Positions 25,563 through 33,329 of a stretch of 35,359 nucleotides of DNA are shown here, piece after piece. Origin of the DNA: a virus; the UHGV virus genome UHGV-0358463; one strand, 5' to 3'. The notes beneath the pieces are model-generated. The model ran no database searches. It saw only the letters and a program-made list of their open reading frames with translations, and had not been told where the DNA came from. Each line of letters begins with the position of its first letter. Positions within the stretch are counted from its first letter, which is position 1. A program made the translations under genes and the position numbers.

Positions 25563-25733
25563 ATGTTTGTCAAACCTGTTAAAGGGCGGTCAGTTCCTGA
25601 CCCTGCCCGCGGCGACCTTTTGCCCGCCGAAGGGCGAAATGTTGACGAGAACAACTACTGGCTGCGCCGTGAAGCAGCGGGTGATATCCGGCGCGTGAAT
25701 AAAAAGGTGAACACCGATGACGATAAGCTTTAA
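25563..25733 (+). CDS. small conserved-position ORF, 56 aa, between tail-completion and sheath genes
   Basis: Not in the ORF track (under 60 aa); ATG at 25563, stop at 25731-25733; overlaps the sheath start; reads MFVKPVKGRSVPDPARGDLL... . Confidence 0.4.
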   Translation: MFVKPVKGRSVPDPARGDLLPAEGRNVDENNYWLRREAAGDIRRVNKKVNTDDDKL

Positions 25734-27211
25734 CACCATTCCGTCGAATACGCTGGTTCCGCTGTTTTATGCGGAAATGGATAACCAGGCGGCGAATACT
25801 GCACAGGACAGCGGAGCATCGCTGCTGATTGGTCATGCCAATAACGGTGCAGAGATTGTTGCCAACAGTCTGGTGCTGATGCCGTCGGCAGACTATGCAC
25901 GCCAGATTTGTGGTGCGGGAAGTCAGCTGGCGCGTATGGTCGAGGCTTATCGCCAGACCGACCCGTTTGGCGAGCTGTATGTGATTGCCGTTCCTGAATC
26001 CACGGGCGGCGGCAACGGTTACGCTGACGGTGACCGGGGAAGCAACCGAAACCGGCACGGTGAATGTCTATGTGGGACGTACCCGCGTGCAGGCTCCGGT
26101 GACCAACGGCGATAACGTCACGACGATTGCCAGCAGTATCAAAGATGCCATCAATGCCGTTCCTGCCCTGCCGTTTACGGCTTCATCTTCGGCAGGCGTG
26201 GTCACACTGACCGCGCGTCATAAGGGGCTTTGCGGGAATGAAATTCCTGTCAGCCTCAATTACTACGGCTTTGGTGGGGGCGAAGTGCTGCCTGCGGGCG
26301 TACAGATTGCCGTGGCGACGGGGACCGCCGGAACGGGCTCTCCTGTTCTCACCGGCGCGGTGGCTGCAATGGCGGATGAGCCGTTTGATTATATCGGCCT
26401 GCCGTTCAACGACACGGCCTCCGTTAACACGCTGGTGACCGAGATGAACGATACCAGCGGTCGCTGGAGCTATGCGCGTCAGCTGTATGGTCATGTGTAT
26501 ACGGCAAAGATCGGCACGCTGTCAGAACTGGTGACCGCAGGTGACCAGTTTAACCAGCAGCACATTACCCTGGCGGGATACGAAAAAGAGACCCAGACGC
26601 CTGCCGACGAGCTGGCGGCAAGCCGTACCGCCCGCGCAGCGGTGTTTATTCGCAACGATCCGGCACGTCCCACGCAGACCGGTGAGCTGGTGGGTATGCT
26701 GCCTGCGCCGAAGGGGAAACGGTTCACGATGACCGAACAACAGACCCTGCTGTCTCATGGCGTGGCAACGGCGTATGTCGAAAGCGGGGTACTGCGCATT
26801 CAGCGTGATGTCACCACGTACAGGAAAAACGCTTACGGGGTTGCGGATAACAGCTACCTCGACAGCGAGACGCTGCATACCAGCGCGTATGTACTGCGCA
26901 AACTGAAATCCGTCATTACCAGTAAGTACGGGCGTCACAAGCTTGCCAGTGACGGTACCCGCTTTGGTCCCGGTCAGGCGATTGTCACCCCGGCGGTGAT
27001 CAAAGGGGAACTGCTGGCAACCTACCGTCAGCTTGAGCGAGCGGGGATCGTGGAAAACTACGAACTGTTTAAGCAGTACCTGGTTGTGGAGCGTGATGCC
27101 AGCGATCCGAACCGCCTGAACACGCTGTTCCCGCCTGACTATGTTAACCAGTTGCGTGTCTTTGCCGTGGTTAACCAGTTCCGTCTTCAGTATTCAGAGG
27201 AGTCTGCATAA
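25717..27211 (+). pseudogene. contractile tail sheath protein (Mu gpL-like) with reading frame interrupted near 26003-26012
   Basis: N-terminal 96 aa (MTISFNTIPSNTLVPLFYAEMDN...VIAVPEST) in one frame and the C-terminal ~400 aa (25985-27211) in another; switch lies in a GGCGGCGGC run. Either a real frameshift or a sequencing error. Confidence 0.55.
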
Positions 27212-27567
27212 TGGCCCGTATCGGGGGAACCTGTTATTTCAAAATTGACGGTCAGCAGCTATCGCTGACCGGCGGCATTGAGGTGCCCATGAACAGGACG
27301 GTCAATGATGACATCATCGGCCTGGACGGTTCAGTGGACCGCAAGGAAACTCACCGTGCGCCTTATGTCAAAGGGACCTTCAAGGTGCCGAAGAATTTTC
27401 CGGTGAGCAAAATCACCTCGTCTGATGAGATGACCATCACTGCCGAGCTGGCGAACGGTCAGGTCTATGTATTGTCGTCTGCCTGGCTGCACGGCGAAGC
27501 GAACCATAATGCCGAAGAAGGCACGGTTGATCTTGAGTTCCACGGTGAAGAAGGGGATTACCAGTGA
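27211..27567 (+). CDS. tail tube protein
   Basis: 118 aa; immediately after the sheath. Confidence 0.8.
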   Translation: MARIGGTCYFKIDGQQLSLTGGIEVPMNRTVNDDIIGLDGSVDRKETHRAPYVKGTFKVPKNFPVSKITSSDEMTITAELANGQVYVLSSAWLHGEANHNAEEGTVDLEFHGEEGDYQ

Positions 27568-27887
27568 TTGAGCTTGTACTTAAAAAACCGATCATCGCCC
27601 ACAAAGAAACACTGCATGTGCTGGAAATACGTGAGCCTACGTATGACGAGATTGAGGCGCTGGGGTTCCCTTTCTCTGTTTCGCCTGATGGTGGTATGAA
27701 AATGGACAGTCAGGTGGCGCTGAAATATATCCCGCTTCTGGCCGGGATCCCGCGCTCGTCTGCAGCGCAGATGACGAAGCTGGATATTTTCAAGGCAGGC
27801 ATGATTGTAATGCGTTTTTTTACCGGCTTGGAGACGGAAGAGAGCTCCGGAAGCGATTCTACAATGTCGCGTGGTTCTGGAAATTAA
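27564..27887 (+). CDS. tail assembly chaperone (short form)
   Basis: 107 aa, directly upstream of the tape measure gene; contains an in-frame slippery heptamer. Confidence 0.7.
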   Translation: MIELVLKKPIIAHKETLHVLEIREPTYDEIEALGFPFSVSPDGGMKMDSQVALKYIPLLAGIPRSSAAQMTKLDIFKAGMIVMRFFTGLETEESSGSDSTMSRGSGN

Positions 27888-27979
27888 ACCCCCTTGAACT
27901 TCGCCGGACGGCTATTTCCCACTTTGCTGATCTGGAGGCAGAGGCTGTCCGTATAAATGAGGAGATGAAGCATGGCTGA
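27815..27979 (+). other. slippery heptamer T TTT TTT (27815-27821) and open -1 frame extension to the stop at 27977-27979: predicted frameshifted long form of the chaperone
   Basis: Zero-frame codons CGT TTT TTT ACC; the -1 frame from 27821 has 52 sense codons and no stop until 27977. Confidence 0.5.
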
Positions 27980-29879
27980 TAATTTTCAGCTGAAAGCCAT
28001 CATCACCGCTGTTGACAGGCTGTCCGGCCCGCTTAAAGGTATGCAGCGTCAGCTTAAGGGATTTCAGAAAGAAGTCTCCAGCCTTGCTCTGGGCGCTGCC
28101 GGGGCGGGTACTGCAATAATGGGAGCACTGGCACTCCCTGTAAAATCAGCCATCACCCTTGAATCGAAGATGGCTGATGTCCGCAAAGTGGTGGACGGTC
28201 TGGATACGCCGGATGCGTTTAAGGCCATGACGGAGCAGGTACGCGCTTTGTCTACTGAGCTTCCCATGTCTGCAGACGGGATCGCGGAAATTGTGGCGGC
28301 TGGCGGTCAGGCCGGGATTGCACGTGATGAACTGATGCAGTTTGCCACTGATGCGGTGAAGATGGGCGTGGCCTTTGATACCACGGCTGAAGAGTCCGGG
28401 CAGATGATGGCCCAGTGGCGTACTGCGTTTAATATGACGCAGGATGAAGTGGCCGGGCTGGCTGACAAAATCAACTACCTTGGTAATACCGGCCCGGCGA
28501 ACGCGAAGAAAATCTCCGATATTGTTACGCGTATTGGTCCTTTAGGTGGTGTTGCAGGTGTGGCTTCCGGCGAAATCGCGGCAATGGGGGCAACCATTGC
28601 CGGGATGGGCGTGGAGTCAGAAATTGCCGCCACAGGGATCAAGAACTTCATGCTTTCCCTGACCGCGGGAAATTCTGCGACAAAATCGCAGAAACAGGCA
28701 TTGCGTTTTCTGCGGATCAATCCGAAGAAATTAGCTGCTGATATGCAGAAAGATGCCCGGGGCACCATGCTGTCTGTACTGGATGCGATGGCTAAAGTGC
28801 CTAAAGAAAAACAGGCAGCTGTGCTGAATGCCCTGTTCGGGAAAGAGTCTCTGGGCGCGATAGCACCTCTGCTGACTAACCTTGATTTGTTGCGTACCAA
28901 CTTCAGGCGGGTTGCGGATTCCCAGCAGTATGGCAGTTCGATGCAGAAGGAATATGCTTCGAGGGCAGCGACGACGGAAAACCAGCTTTTACTTCTGCAA
29001 AATCAACTTGATGCCATTTCTTCCACGCTGGGGGAAACGTTTCTTCCTGAGGTTAATGATGGTCTTGAAGCGGTAAAACCGCTCCTTGAGGAAGTGAGAA
29101 CGTTTGTCCGTGAAAACCCGGAGCTCGTTAAGACCATTGCTAAAATCGGTCTGGCTTTACTGACAGTGGGGGCCGCTGCAGGCTCTTTGTCCAGAATCAT
29201 GAAAATTCTCGGCGGTGTGATGAATATGACGCCTGCTAAGGGGCTGATTGCTCTTCTGGTTGGTGGCGCTTACCTCATTATTGATAATTGGGAAACCGTA
29301 GGCCCTGTCATAAAAAAAGTCTGGCACGTGGTGGATGAAACGGCGCAGGTGATGGGGGGATGGGAAACTGTTCTGAAAGCGATTGCCCTGTTTATGGCAA
29401 CCAAATGGGTTGCTGACGTTACCAAATCCATTACCGCAGTGACCAGAGAGATGCGTACGCTGGGGAAGGTATCGGCAGAAACGGGATTGATGGGGAAAGG
29501 CCGCGGCTTTATCGGGAAGGCCGGGGTATATGGTTTTTTGGGAACCCTGATGTATGAGCCGGTTAAAGATACTCTGGAAAGTGTTGTTCCTGAAGATACG
29601 GTTAACTGGCTGGATAATAAAGGGCTGTTTCTGGCTTCAGACTGGACGCCTTTTTTTGATCGTAAAGAGTACGAGCAGTATCAGGCCAGCCTGAGCCAGT
29701 ACAAACCCAATGTTCCGCTGTTGAATCCATCTTCTTCCATGACACAGCACAGCGAGCTGAAAGTCACGTTCGAGAATGCTCCGCCAGGTATGAAGATAAT
29801 TGATGTACCGGGCAAAGCCGATCCCCTGATGAAAATCACGCACGATGTGGGGTATTCCCCTTTTCGTTTTCCACGATAA
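27972..29879 (+). CDS. tail tape measure protein
   Basis: 635 aa; Ala/Gly-rich with hydrophobic segments; follows the chaperone. Confidence 0.9.
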   Translation: MADNFQLKAIITAVDRLSGPLKGMQRQLKGFQKEVSSLALGAAGAGTAIMGALALPVKSAITLESKMADVRKVVDGLDTPDAFKAMTEQVRALSTELPMSADGIAEIVAAGGQAGIARDELMQFATDAVKMGVAFDTTAEESGQMMAQWRTAFNMTQDEVAGLADKINYLGNTGPANAKKISDIVTRIGPLGGVAGVASGEIAAMGATIAGMGVESEIAATGIKNFMLSLTAGNSATKSQKQALRFLRINPKKLAADMQKDARGTMLSVLDAMAKVPKEKQAAVLNALFGKESLGAIAPLLTNLDLLRTNFRRVADSQQYGSSMQKEYASRAATTENQLLLLQNQLDAISSTLGETFLPEVNDGLEAVKPLLEEVRTFVRENPELVKTIAKIGLALLTVGAAAGSLSRIMKILGGVMNMTPAKGLIALLVGGAYLIIDNWETVGPVIKKVWHVVDETAQVMGGWETVLKAIALFMATKWVADVTKSITAVTREMRTLGKVSAETGLMGKGRGFIGKAGVYGFLGTLMYEPVKDTLESVVPEDTVNWLDNKGLFLASDWTPFFDRKEYEQYQASLSQYKPNVPLLNPSSSMTQHSELKVTFENAPPGMKIIDVPGKADPLMKITHDVGYSPFRFPR

Positions 29880-32356: not shown

Positions 32357-32904
32357 TGAGGACGATTGAAGCCATGCAGCGACAACTTCTCGGCCTGATT
32401 GGGCGGGCAGTGGTGAAAAGCATCAGTGCCGCCACGAAATGTCAGACTGTGGATGTGTCCCTGATTGCCGGTGAACCCAAAGCCGGGGTTGAACATCTTG
32501 AACCCTACGGTTTTACCGCAAGGGCAAACAGCGGTGCGGAAGCGGTGGTGTTGTTTCCGGATGGCGACCGTTCTCATGCGGTGGTTGTTACGGTGTCGGA
32601 CCGGCGCTACCGCCTGAAAGGGCTGCAGACGGGTGAGGTGGCTGTCTATGACGATCAGGGGCAGTCTGTGACGCTGACCCGGGAGGGGATCGTGGTGGAC
32701 GGTGCAGGTAAAACGATCACGTTTCGCAATGCGCCCAGAGCACGTTTTGAAATGGACCTGGAAGTGACCGGACAGGTGAAAGACCTGTGCGACTCCGGCG
32801 GTACCACCATGTCAGCGATGCGGCTTGCCTATAACGGGCATCGTCACAGAGAGAACGGTCAGGGCAGTAACACCGACAAACCTGATAAAGCGATGGAGGC
32901 ATGA
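32356..32904 (+). CDS. baseplate assembly protein V (spike; Mu gp45-like)
   Basis: 182 aa; conserved order. Confidence 0.75.
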   Translation: MRTIEAMQRQLLGLIGRAVVKSISAATKCQTVDVSLIAGEPKAGVEHLEPYGFTARANSGAEAVVLFPDGDRSHAVVVTVSDRRYRLKGLQTGEVAVYDDQGQSVTLTREGIVVDGAGKTITFRNAPRARFEMDLEVTGQVKDLCDSGGTTMSAMRLAYNGHRHRENGQGSNTDKPDKAMEA

Positions 32905-33329
32905 TGGAACTGTGGCTGACGGTGAACGGTAAACGCACCTGCGCCAGCGCACAGCTGGATCCGCTGACCCGCGCCGTGGTGATTTCCCTGTTTACCTGGC
33001 GGCGGGCGGAGCCTGATGACAACGCCGATGTCCCGATGGGATGGTGGGGGGATACCTGGCCTGCGGTACAGAATGACCGTTACGGCTCCCGACTGTGGCT
33101 GCTTCAGCGCAGCAAACTGACCAATCAACTGGTGCAGACAGTAAGGGGGTATATCCGCGAATGCCTGCAATGGATGATTGATGACGGCGTGGTGTTCCGT
33201 ATTGATCTGGATATCCGCCGTACCGGGATTAATGAACTGGGTAACAGTATCACTCTCTGGCGTCGTGACGGACCGGTAATGATTTCTTTTGATGATCTGT
33301 GGAGTGCGATAACGCATGGCGGACAGTGA
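32901..33329 (+). CDS. baseplate wedge protein (Mu gp46 / gpW-like)
   Basis: 142 aa; conserved order. Confidence 0.7.
   Translation: MMELWLTVNGKRTCASAQLDPLTRAVVISLFTWRRAEPDDNADVPMGWWGDTWPAVQNDRYGSRLWLLQRSKLTNQLVQTVRGYIRECLQWMIDDGVVFRIDLDIRRTGINELGNSITLWRRDGPVMISFDDLWSAITHGGQ

Follow-up and report, generated by a model that had tools for sequence, protein, structure and literature searches.

The stretch of DNA analysed here (UHGV virus genome UHGV-0358463; 35,359 nucleotides, called the window below) is an integrated prophage resembling SfIV, SfII and SfV, with an integrase and early genes in the first 18 kb, followed by head and tail genes. Within its tail region, a plus-strand gene at 27564..27887, with a GTG start and a TAA stop at 27885-27887, encodes an acidic protein of 107 amino acids (computed mass 11.7 kDa, pI 5.3). 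Residues 5-86 of this protein match positions 3-78/79 of the PF10109 (Phage_TAC_7) profile with a score of 32.1 bits, against a cut-off of 25. Pfam gives this family the title "Phage tail assembly chaperone proteins, E, or 41 or 14". The protein also matches phrog_166, annotated as 'tail protein' (E 3e-22). Its upstream neighbour on the same strand (27211..27567) encodes a tail tube protein of 118 amino acids that matches PF10618 (Tail_tube, E 2.4e-33) and is labelled tail tube in the annotations of SfIV and its relatives as well. Downstream, and also on the plus strand, lies the tape measure gene (27972..29879; 635 amino acids), identified by a match to PF10145 (PhageMin_Tail, E 2.2e-42) and by annotation. 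The PF10109 match, together with the location between tube and tape measure genes, bears out the initial annotation of this gene as a tail assembly chaperone.

The chaperone gene contains a run of seven T residues at 27815-27821, flanked by G at 27814 and A at 27822. The run is read as CGT TTT TTT ACC: its first T closes codon 84, and each of the next two codons, 85 and 86, is TTT. It therefore has the X XXY YYZ register of a slippery heptamer, T TTT TTT, as had been claimed from the letters of the sequence. From position 27821, the -1 frame stays open for 52 sense codons (YRLGDGRELRKRFYNVAWFWKLNPLELRRTAISHFADLEAEAVRINEEMKHG) and ends with TGA at 27977-27979, overlapping the start of the tape measure gene (ATG at 27972) by 8 nucleotides (ATGGCTGA), so that the extension of 52 codons ending just inside that gene, which was also part of the earlier proposal, is present as described. 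The -1 frame is open from 27689 to 27979 and contains no ATG, GTG or TTG until 27965, four codons ahead of the stop. With no start codon of its own, the -1 ORF would be translated only by ribosomes coming from the chaperone frame.

The predicted long form consists of residues 1-86 followed by 52 new residues, giving a protein of 138 amino acids (15.9 kDa, pI 8.9). Its extension, encoded with the stop codon at 27821..27979, would share the stretch 27822..27887 with the 21-residue tail of the 0 frame, making that stretch dual-coded, and would then occupy the 84-nucleotide 'intergenic gap' at 27888..27971. The tape measure gene has its Shine-Dalgarno sequence, GAGGAG (27959..27964, 7 nucleotides 5' of its ATG), within the 3' end of the -1 ORF. 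As a protein, the extension has phrog_32181 (function unknown; E 4e-6) as its sole family match, and searches of Pfam and NCBIfam returned none. A sequence comparison of the long form with solved structures gave no meaningful match. AlphaFold, run on the long form as a single sequence, gave a model with a mean pLDDT of 68 and predicted helices at residues 72-88, 92-105 and 110-136; a Foldseek search of the PDB with this model was uninformative (best E 1.9).

Conservation of the slip site and of the -1 frame

The 43 gene-like ORFs of the window contain 54 in-frame XXXYYYZ heptamers, and the -1 frame is open for at least 52 codons at 6% of codon positions. About three heptamers followed by such an open frame are expected in the window; the observed number is also three, including one in a shadow ORF. 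Runs of at least seven T residues occur eight times. A heptamer with an open -1 frame is by itself not significant, and the case must stand on comparative evidence; what goes beyond chance is the position of the site, its conservation, and the fact that the -1 ORF stops on the start of the next gene. We rejected one other candidate, at 32982 on the minus strand, where a GGGAAAT heptamer precedes a -1 ORF of 56 codons, because it belongs to a shadow ORF opposite a real plus-strand gene (32901..33329). The tape measure gene holds two further in-frame heptamers, T TTT TTG at 29534-29540 and T TTT TTT at 29651-29657. The -1 frames at these sites stop after 5 and 0 codons, respectively, so slippage would only truncate the product, and both look like chance occurrences.

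We searched 50,697 phage records by tblastn with the chaperone and with the 52-residue -1 peptide. In all 30 matching records, homology to the chaperone in the 0 frame ends at residue 86, the second TTT codon, and in 24 of these the -1 peptide matches from the very nucleotide at which the 0-frame match stops. The end of one match and the start of the other coincide in SfIV (9879/9879), phiP27 (31473/31473), ST64B (9809/9809) and YeP1 (9914/9914) and, by extrapolation, in SfV (9620/9620). This frame switch at the slip nucleotide persists down to 40% identity. The -1 peptide is identical to that of phiP27 at 42 of 51 positions. The 21-residue tail of the 0 frame is poorly conserved, with 13 of 21 residues identical to phiP27 and 11 of 21 in another comparison, and ranges from 3 to 21 amino acids across homologue clades.

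Besides 14 annotated phage loci, the set of about 250 junction loci comprised two groups of 80 from IMG/VR, one near the window's clade and one from the Pseudomonas clade, plus 80 genome loci of the Pseudomonas clade. Among 162 distinct junctions from phages and prophages of Enterobacterales, Pseudomonas and Burkholderia, 161 have T TTT TTN at the corresponding codon. The run is TTTTTTC in 128 junctions and TTTTTTT in 30, with one each ending in G, ending in A, or extended to T8; nine more loci outside the motif filter also carry T TTT TTN. Among the 14 annotated loci, which come from Escherichia, Shigella, Salmonella, Pantoea, Edwardsiella, Yersinia, Pseudomonas and Burkholderia phages, the heptamer lies at codon 84-89 and the -1 ORF, 52-64 codons long, ends between -3 and +10 nucleotides from the tape measure start. 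Over the whole set of junctions, the extension has 50-63 codons. Codon 84 is AGT, CGT, AAT, GGT, CCT, ATT or GTT, specifying seven different amino acids and always having the form NNT. A variable amino acid combined with a constant T indicates that selection acts on the run itself. Lack of a conserved -1 extension among homologues had been named as a refuting outcome in the initial annotation, and both signal and peptide proved to be conserved.

Several homologous loci deserve separate mention. The only homologue without the T run is that of the Paraburkholderia phage IPK (L011, ~1040-1110; an UNVERIFIED record), in which the two phenylalanines are encoded by TTC TTC. This phage keeps a -1 extension that opens later, and the sole possible window for a shift is a 10-nucleotide overlap (GGGCGCGTAA) beside the 0-frame stop; the locus may use a non-canonical shift site or contain a sequence error. 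Chromosomal Mu-type tail clusters with AGT TTT TTC and a 54-codon extension are widespread in the Pseudomonas fluorescens group (L178-L257), and are probably tailocins or prophages. A Pseudomonas-like copy with 97% identity occurs in a 7.1-Mb sequence labelled Leclercia tamurae (OZ240079.1; L187), which suggests a mislabelled or mixed assembly.

The pattern of substitutions changes frame at the slip site. In comparison with phiP27, substitutions upstream of this site are distributed 14/4/35 over positions 1/2/3 of 0-frame codons, and those downstream 6/3/25 over positions 1/2/3 of -1-frame codons (P 2e-6). The 84-nucleotide gap taken alone has a distribution of 2/1/16, such that 16 of 19 changes fall on third positions of the -1 frame (P 7e-6), and in a comparison with F1055 the same is true of 13 of 18 changes in the gap (P 8e-4). 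The switch in periodicity at the slip site is repeated in the SfII/EPP-1 pair and in Pseudomonas pairs. These patterns indicate that the -1 frame, gap included, is under purifying selection. When the gap was considered as a regulatory region, we detected no terminator, no plus-strand promoter and no Rfam match in it. The idea that the -1 frame accounts for the gap is thus upheld by coding-type substitutions, whereas the length of 85 base pairs originally given for it is corrected to 84 nucleotides (27888-27971).

Proposed ribosomal slippage and its alternatives

With a probability of about 0.88, we interpret the T run as a site of programmed -1 ribosomal frameshifting within the tail chaperone gene of an SfIV/SfV-like myovirus prophage, corresponding to P2 E/E+E' and with lambda G/GT as an analogue. 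According to this model, most ribosomes would read 27564..27887 and release the short chaperone of 107 amino acids. A minority would slip by -1 with two tRNA-Phe on UUU UUU (27816-27821), re-pairing on U UUU UU (27815-27820), and would then translate the -1 frame from UAC at 27821 through 51 more codons up to the UGA at 27977-27979. The resulting long form would carry the junction ...MRFF-YRLGDG.... By analogy with lambda, the N-terminal domain common to both forms could coat the tape measure protein, and the basic, helical extension of the long form could recruit the tube protein, upon which the tail would polymerise around the tape measure. Both forms are expected to be absent from the virion, and the 138-residue protein is probably essential for tail assembly. 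The literature covered, from which Xu et al. 2004 was absent, contained no protein or RNA measurement for this phage group.

A downstream stimulatory structure, which the initial annotation had suggested looking for, was sought by folding the window and each of seven homologues singly, by an alignment fold and by a search of Rfam, and none was detected. The 49-86 nucleotides downstream of the slip site in the window fold like shuffled controls (z -0.09, -0.13), the consensus fold of nine sequences reaches only -0.85 kcal/mol (alifold) with no helix near the slip site, and the slip region has no match in Rfam. The 15 nucleotides upstream of the slip site contain no motif resembling a Shine-Dalgarno sequence. 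In these respects the site is unlike frameshift sites of the dnaX or IS type, which have a hairpin or pseudoknot, stable and conserved, at 5-9 nucleotides downstream, or an upstream element like a Shine-Dalgarno sequence. The Burkholderia phage BgVeeders33 has a hairpin 7 nucleotides past its slip site (L014, 1066-1115; -26.8 kcal/mol, z -3.3). This hairpin has no counterpart in the window or in other homologues, and may be a lineage-specific stimulator. The slip sites of P2 and its relatives are likewise reported to have no stimulatory structure (PMC3091744), and U UUU UUU is reported to be only modestly shifty in E. coli, much less so than A AAA AAG (PMC5009743). The efficiency of shifting is probably low: from the modest shiftiness of U UUU UUU without a structure, the long form is predicted to be a minor product, at a ratio similar to the ~1:30 of lambda (PMC5009743).

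The same 138-residue protein could arise with no ribosomal event, if RNA polymerase stuttered on the T7 run and added one U to the transcript. A homopolymer in which one extra U yields exactly this product is well suited to such a process, productive transcriptional slippage occurs in Shigella genes (PMC5009743), and selection for an unbroken T run fits ribosomal and transcriptional slippage alike. However, most homologues have only six T residues (the TTTTTTC junctions, 128 of 162), and annotation and literature alike treat the homologous P2 site, T TTT TTG, as one of translational -1 shifting (PMC3091744). The constant X XXY YYZ register of the run also speaks for the ribosome, though shared descent could account for it too. 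Efficient transcriptional slippage in bacteria needs runs of about 9. We consider a purely transcriptional origin of the long form quite unlikely.

In some loci, the long form is hard-wired in a single frame. One IMG/VR locus has a T8 run (L016, 1747-1754), and 1-nucleotide indels 3' of the T run fuse the two frames in locus L017 (~1786) and in the proteins P0002 (from S. flexneri K-1770) and P0003. Such variants may be real, or may reflect sequencing errors in homopolymers or the decay of prophages. A speculative and in our estimation unlikely proposal is that the T run acts at two levels, through transcriptional stutter and ribosomal slippage, with the hard-wired variants as possible viable states. 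If this proposal were true, the ratio of short to long forms in this phage group would be evolvable via homopolymer length.

It is very improbable that the motif is a product of chance, with the 107-residue protein made alone and no coding role for an intergenic spacer at 27888-27971. Heptamers with a sufficiently open -1 frame do occur at the expected rate in the window, and T7 runs are not rare in it, but the putative spacer evolves as -1-frame coding sequence, the -1 peptide is conserved across genera from the slip nucleotide onward, even at 40% identity, and the T6 run is kept in all but one junction while the flanking codon varies. Translation of the -1 ORF as a separate small gene from its own internal start is barely credible, since the frame offers no start codon before 27965 and conservation starts at the slip site rather than at any start codon, even though phrog_32181 and three database proteins reflect that gene callers at times call the -1 ORF or fusions. 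Those three proteins are the only matches of the -1 peptide among 5.8 billion proteins, one being a partial fragment and two being in-frame fusions created by 1-nucleotide indels.

Prophage context and annotation

Positions 27211-28100, which include the site of the proposed ribosomal frameshift, show 100% identity to the sequence of Shigella phage SfIV. This phage is an inducible myovirus whose contractile tail measures about 101 nm (SfIV genome paper). The sheath gene of the window (25717-27211) is broken into two frames, 25717..26115 and 25985..27211, by a 2-nucleotide deletion relative to SfIV near 26003-26006 in a GGCGCGGCGGC repeat. This deletion occurs in none of 1,074 complete E. coli genomes that carry the module. 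Either the sheath gene is a pseudogene and the prophage is tail-defective, or the deletion is a sequencing error; in view of the deletion, the tail module around the frameshift signal may have lost the ability to build tails.

In SfI, SfII and SfV, the sheath and tube genes have ~97% identity to the window, and divergence sets in just past the chaperone start. A mosaic breakpoint thus lies at ~27600, at the boundary between tube and chaperone, and the divergent stretch continues to 29879. The chaperone and tape measure genes of these three phages are both less than 50% identical to those of SfIV, indicating that the two genes are exchanged as one unit. Their joint exchange is a hint in favour of the domain roles proposed above. 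We also considered whether a 'tail assembly frameshift mutation' of ST64B represents programmed recoding, and rejected it as the literature describes a disabling mutation.

None of the GenBank, RefSeq and PGAP records that we inspected contains a joined CDS, and only the short form is annotated. The 138-residue protein is missing from SfIV, SfV, SfI, SfII, phiP27, ST64B and one PGAP-annotated E. coli prophage, and ORF-12 is termed hypothetical in the SfIV genome paper, which nowhere mentions a frameshift. Of 5,426 complete E. coli genomes, about 1,080 carry this tail module. This kind of recoding is known and ordinary, but is not annotated in the records inspected. The main value of the result lies in annotation, in that the 84-nucleotide 'intergenic' stretch should count as coding. 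The locus also adds one more well-supported case of the conserved chaperone frameshift.

Comparison with P2, lambda and Mu

Frameshifting is conserved in phage tail genes and has been demonstrated for lambda and P2 (PMC5009743, PMC3091744, PMC2628397). The programmed -1 frameshift of P2 gpE/gpE+E' at T TTT TTG is attributed in PMC3091744 to Christie et al. 2002, and the P2 record annotates E (91 amino acids) and E+E' (142 amino acids) as joined by a -1 shift at this heptamer. The P2 system resembles that of the window in many respects. Both have a PF10109 N-terminal domain that ends at the slip site (residue 86 here; residues 7-85 of P2 E), a T6 run in an identical codon register and no downstream structure. 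The two products are 107 and 138 amino acids long here versus 91 and 142 in P2. Both genes lie directly 5' of the tape measure gene (gene T in P2), which the long form overlaps by 8 nucleotides in each case. A profile built from 10 predicted long forms gives an alignment to P2 E+E' that runs on past the junction, FF|Y here versus FL|V in P2 (hhalign probability 83.5%, E 8e-6).

There are also differences. The heptamer ends in G in P2 and in T here, so that the A-site codon specifies Leu in P2 and Phe in the window, and the 0-frame tail is 6 amino acids long in P2 but 21 here. The sheath and tube genes of the window are Mu-like rather than P2-like, and the slip signal of P2 has been demonstrated, whereas that of the window is known from sequence. 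PF06528 (Phage_P2_GpE) has no match in the window's -1 extension at E <= 1, and the resemblance of the extension alone to P2 E' is weak (E 0.0026, probability 11%). We therefore describe the system as E+E'-like in working, with a shared family of N-terminal domains and a distinct C-terminal family (phrog_32181). By the shared N-terminal family, the slip register and the 8-nucleotide overlap, P2 E/E+E' is the closest relative, with lambda G/GT as an analogue only.

A tail assembly chaperone frameshift pair of the lambda G/GT type was reportedly described by Xu, Hendrix and Duda in 2004. The lambda -1 frameshift occurs at G GGA AAG. Features typical of this type are found in the window, namely the gene position, a startless overlapping ORF, a heptamer in the correct register, and conservation of both the signal and the trans-frame peptide. 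As in lambda gpG/gpGT, short and long chaperones would be made from one start, between the major tail and tape measure genes; in lambda the long form is the minor product, at about 1 in 30 (PMC5009743). However, there is no detectable sequence relationship with lambda, the slippery sequences differ, and the lambda tail is non-contractile. The initial annotation of the locus as a lambda G/GT analogue captures the logic of short and long chaperones, but misses the closest system, as PF10109 and the slip register are shared with P2 E/E+E'.

Mu has sheath (L-like) and tube (M-like) neighbours of the same type as those of the window, and its chaperone occupies an equal position. Mu gp41 weakly resembles PF10109 (24.7 bits), but it matches PF23746 (Gp41_Mu), which the window's protein does not. 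Between Mu gp41 and gp42 (L096, 2950-3130), an open extension in the +1/-2 frame lies beside ACGGGGGCGA and ends shortly 5' of gp42. The position of this extension in the +1/-2 frame agrees with the -2 shift reported for Mu (PMC2628397, PMC5009743), and the Mu RefSeq record annotates the short gp41 alone. The Mu extension is thus reached beside a G run in the +1/-2 frame, whereas that of the window lies in the -1 frame at a T run. A comparison with Mu-like tail modules had been recommended at the outset, and its outcome is divided: related phage loci keep the signal, but Mu itself differs in both protein family and frame. The locus shows that a Mu-like sheath and tube module can bear a chaperone of the P2 type, with a -1 shift at a T run, instead of one of the Mu type, with a -2 shift.
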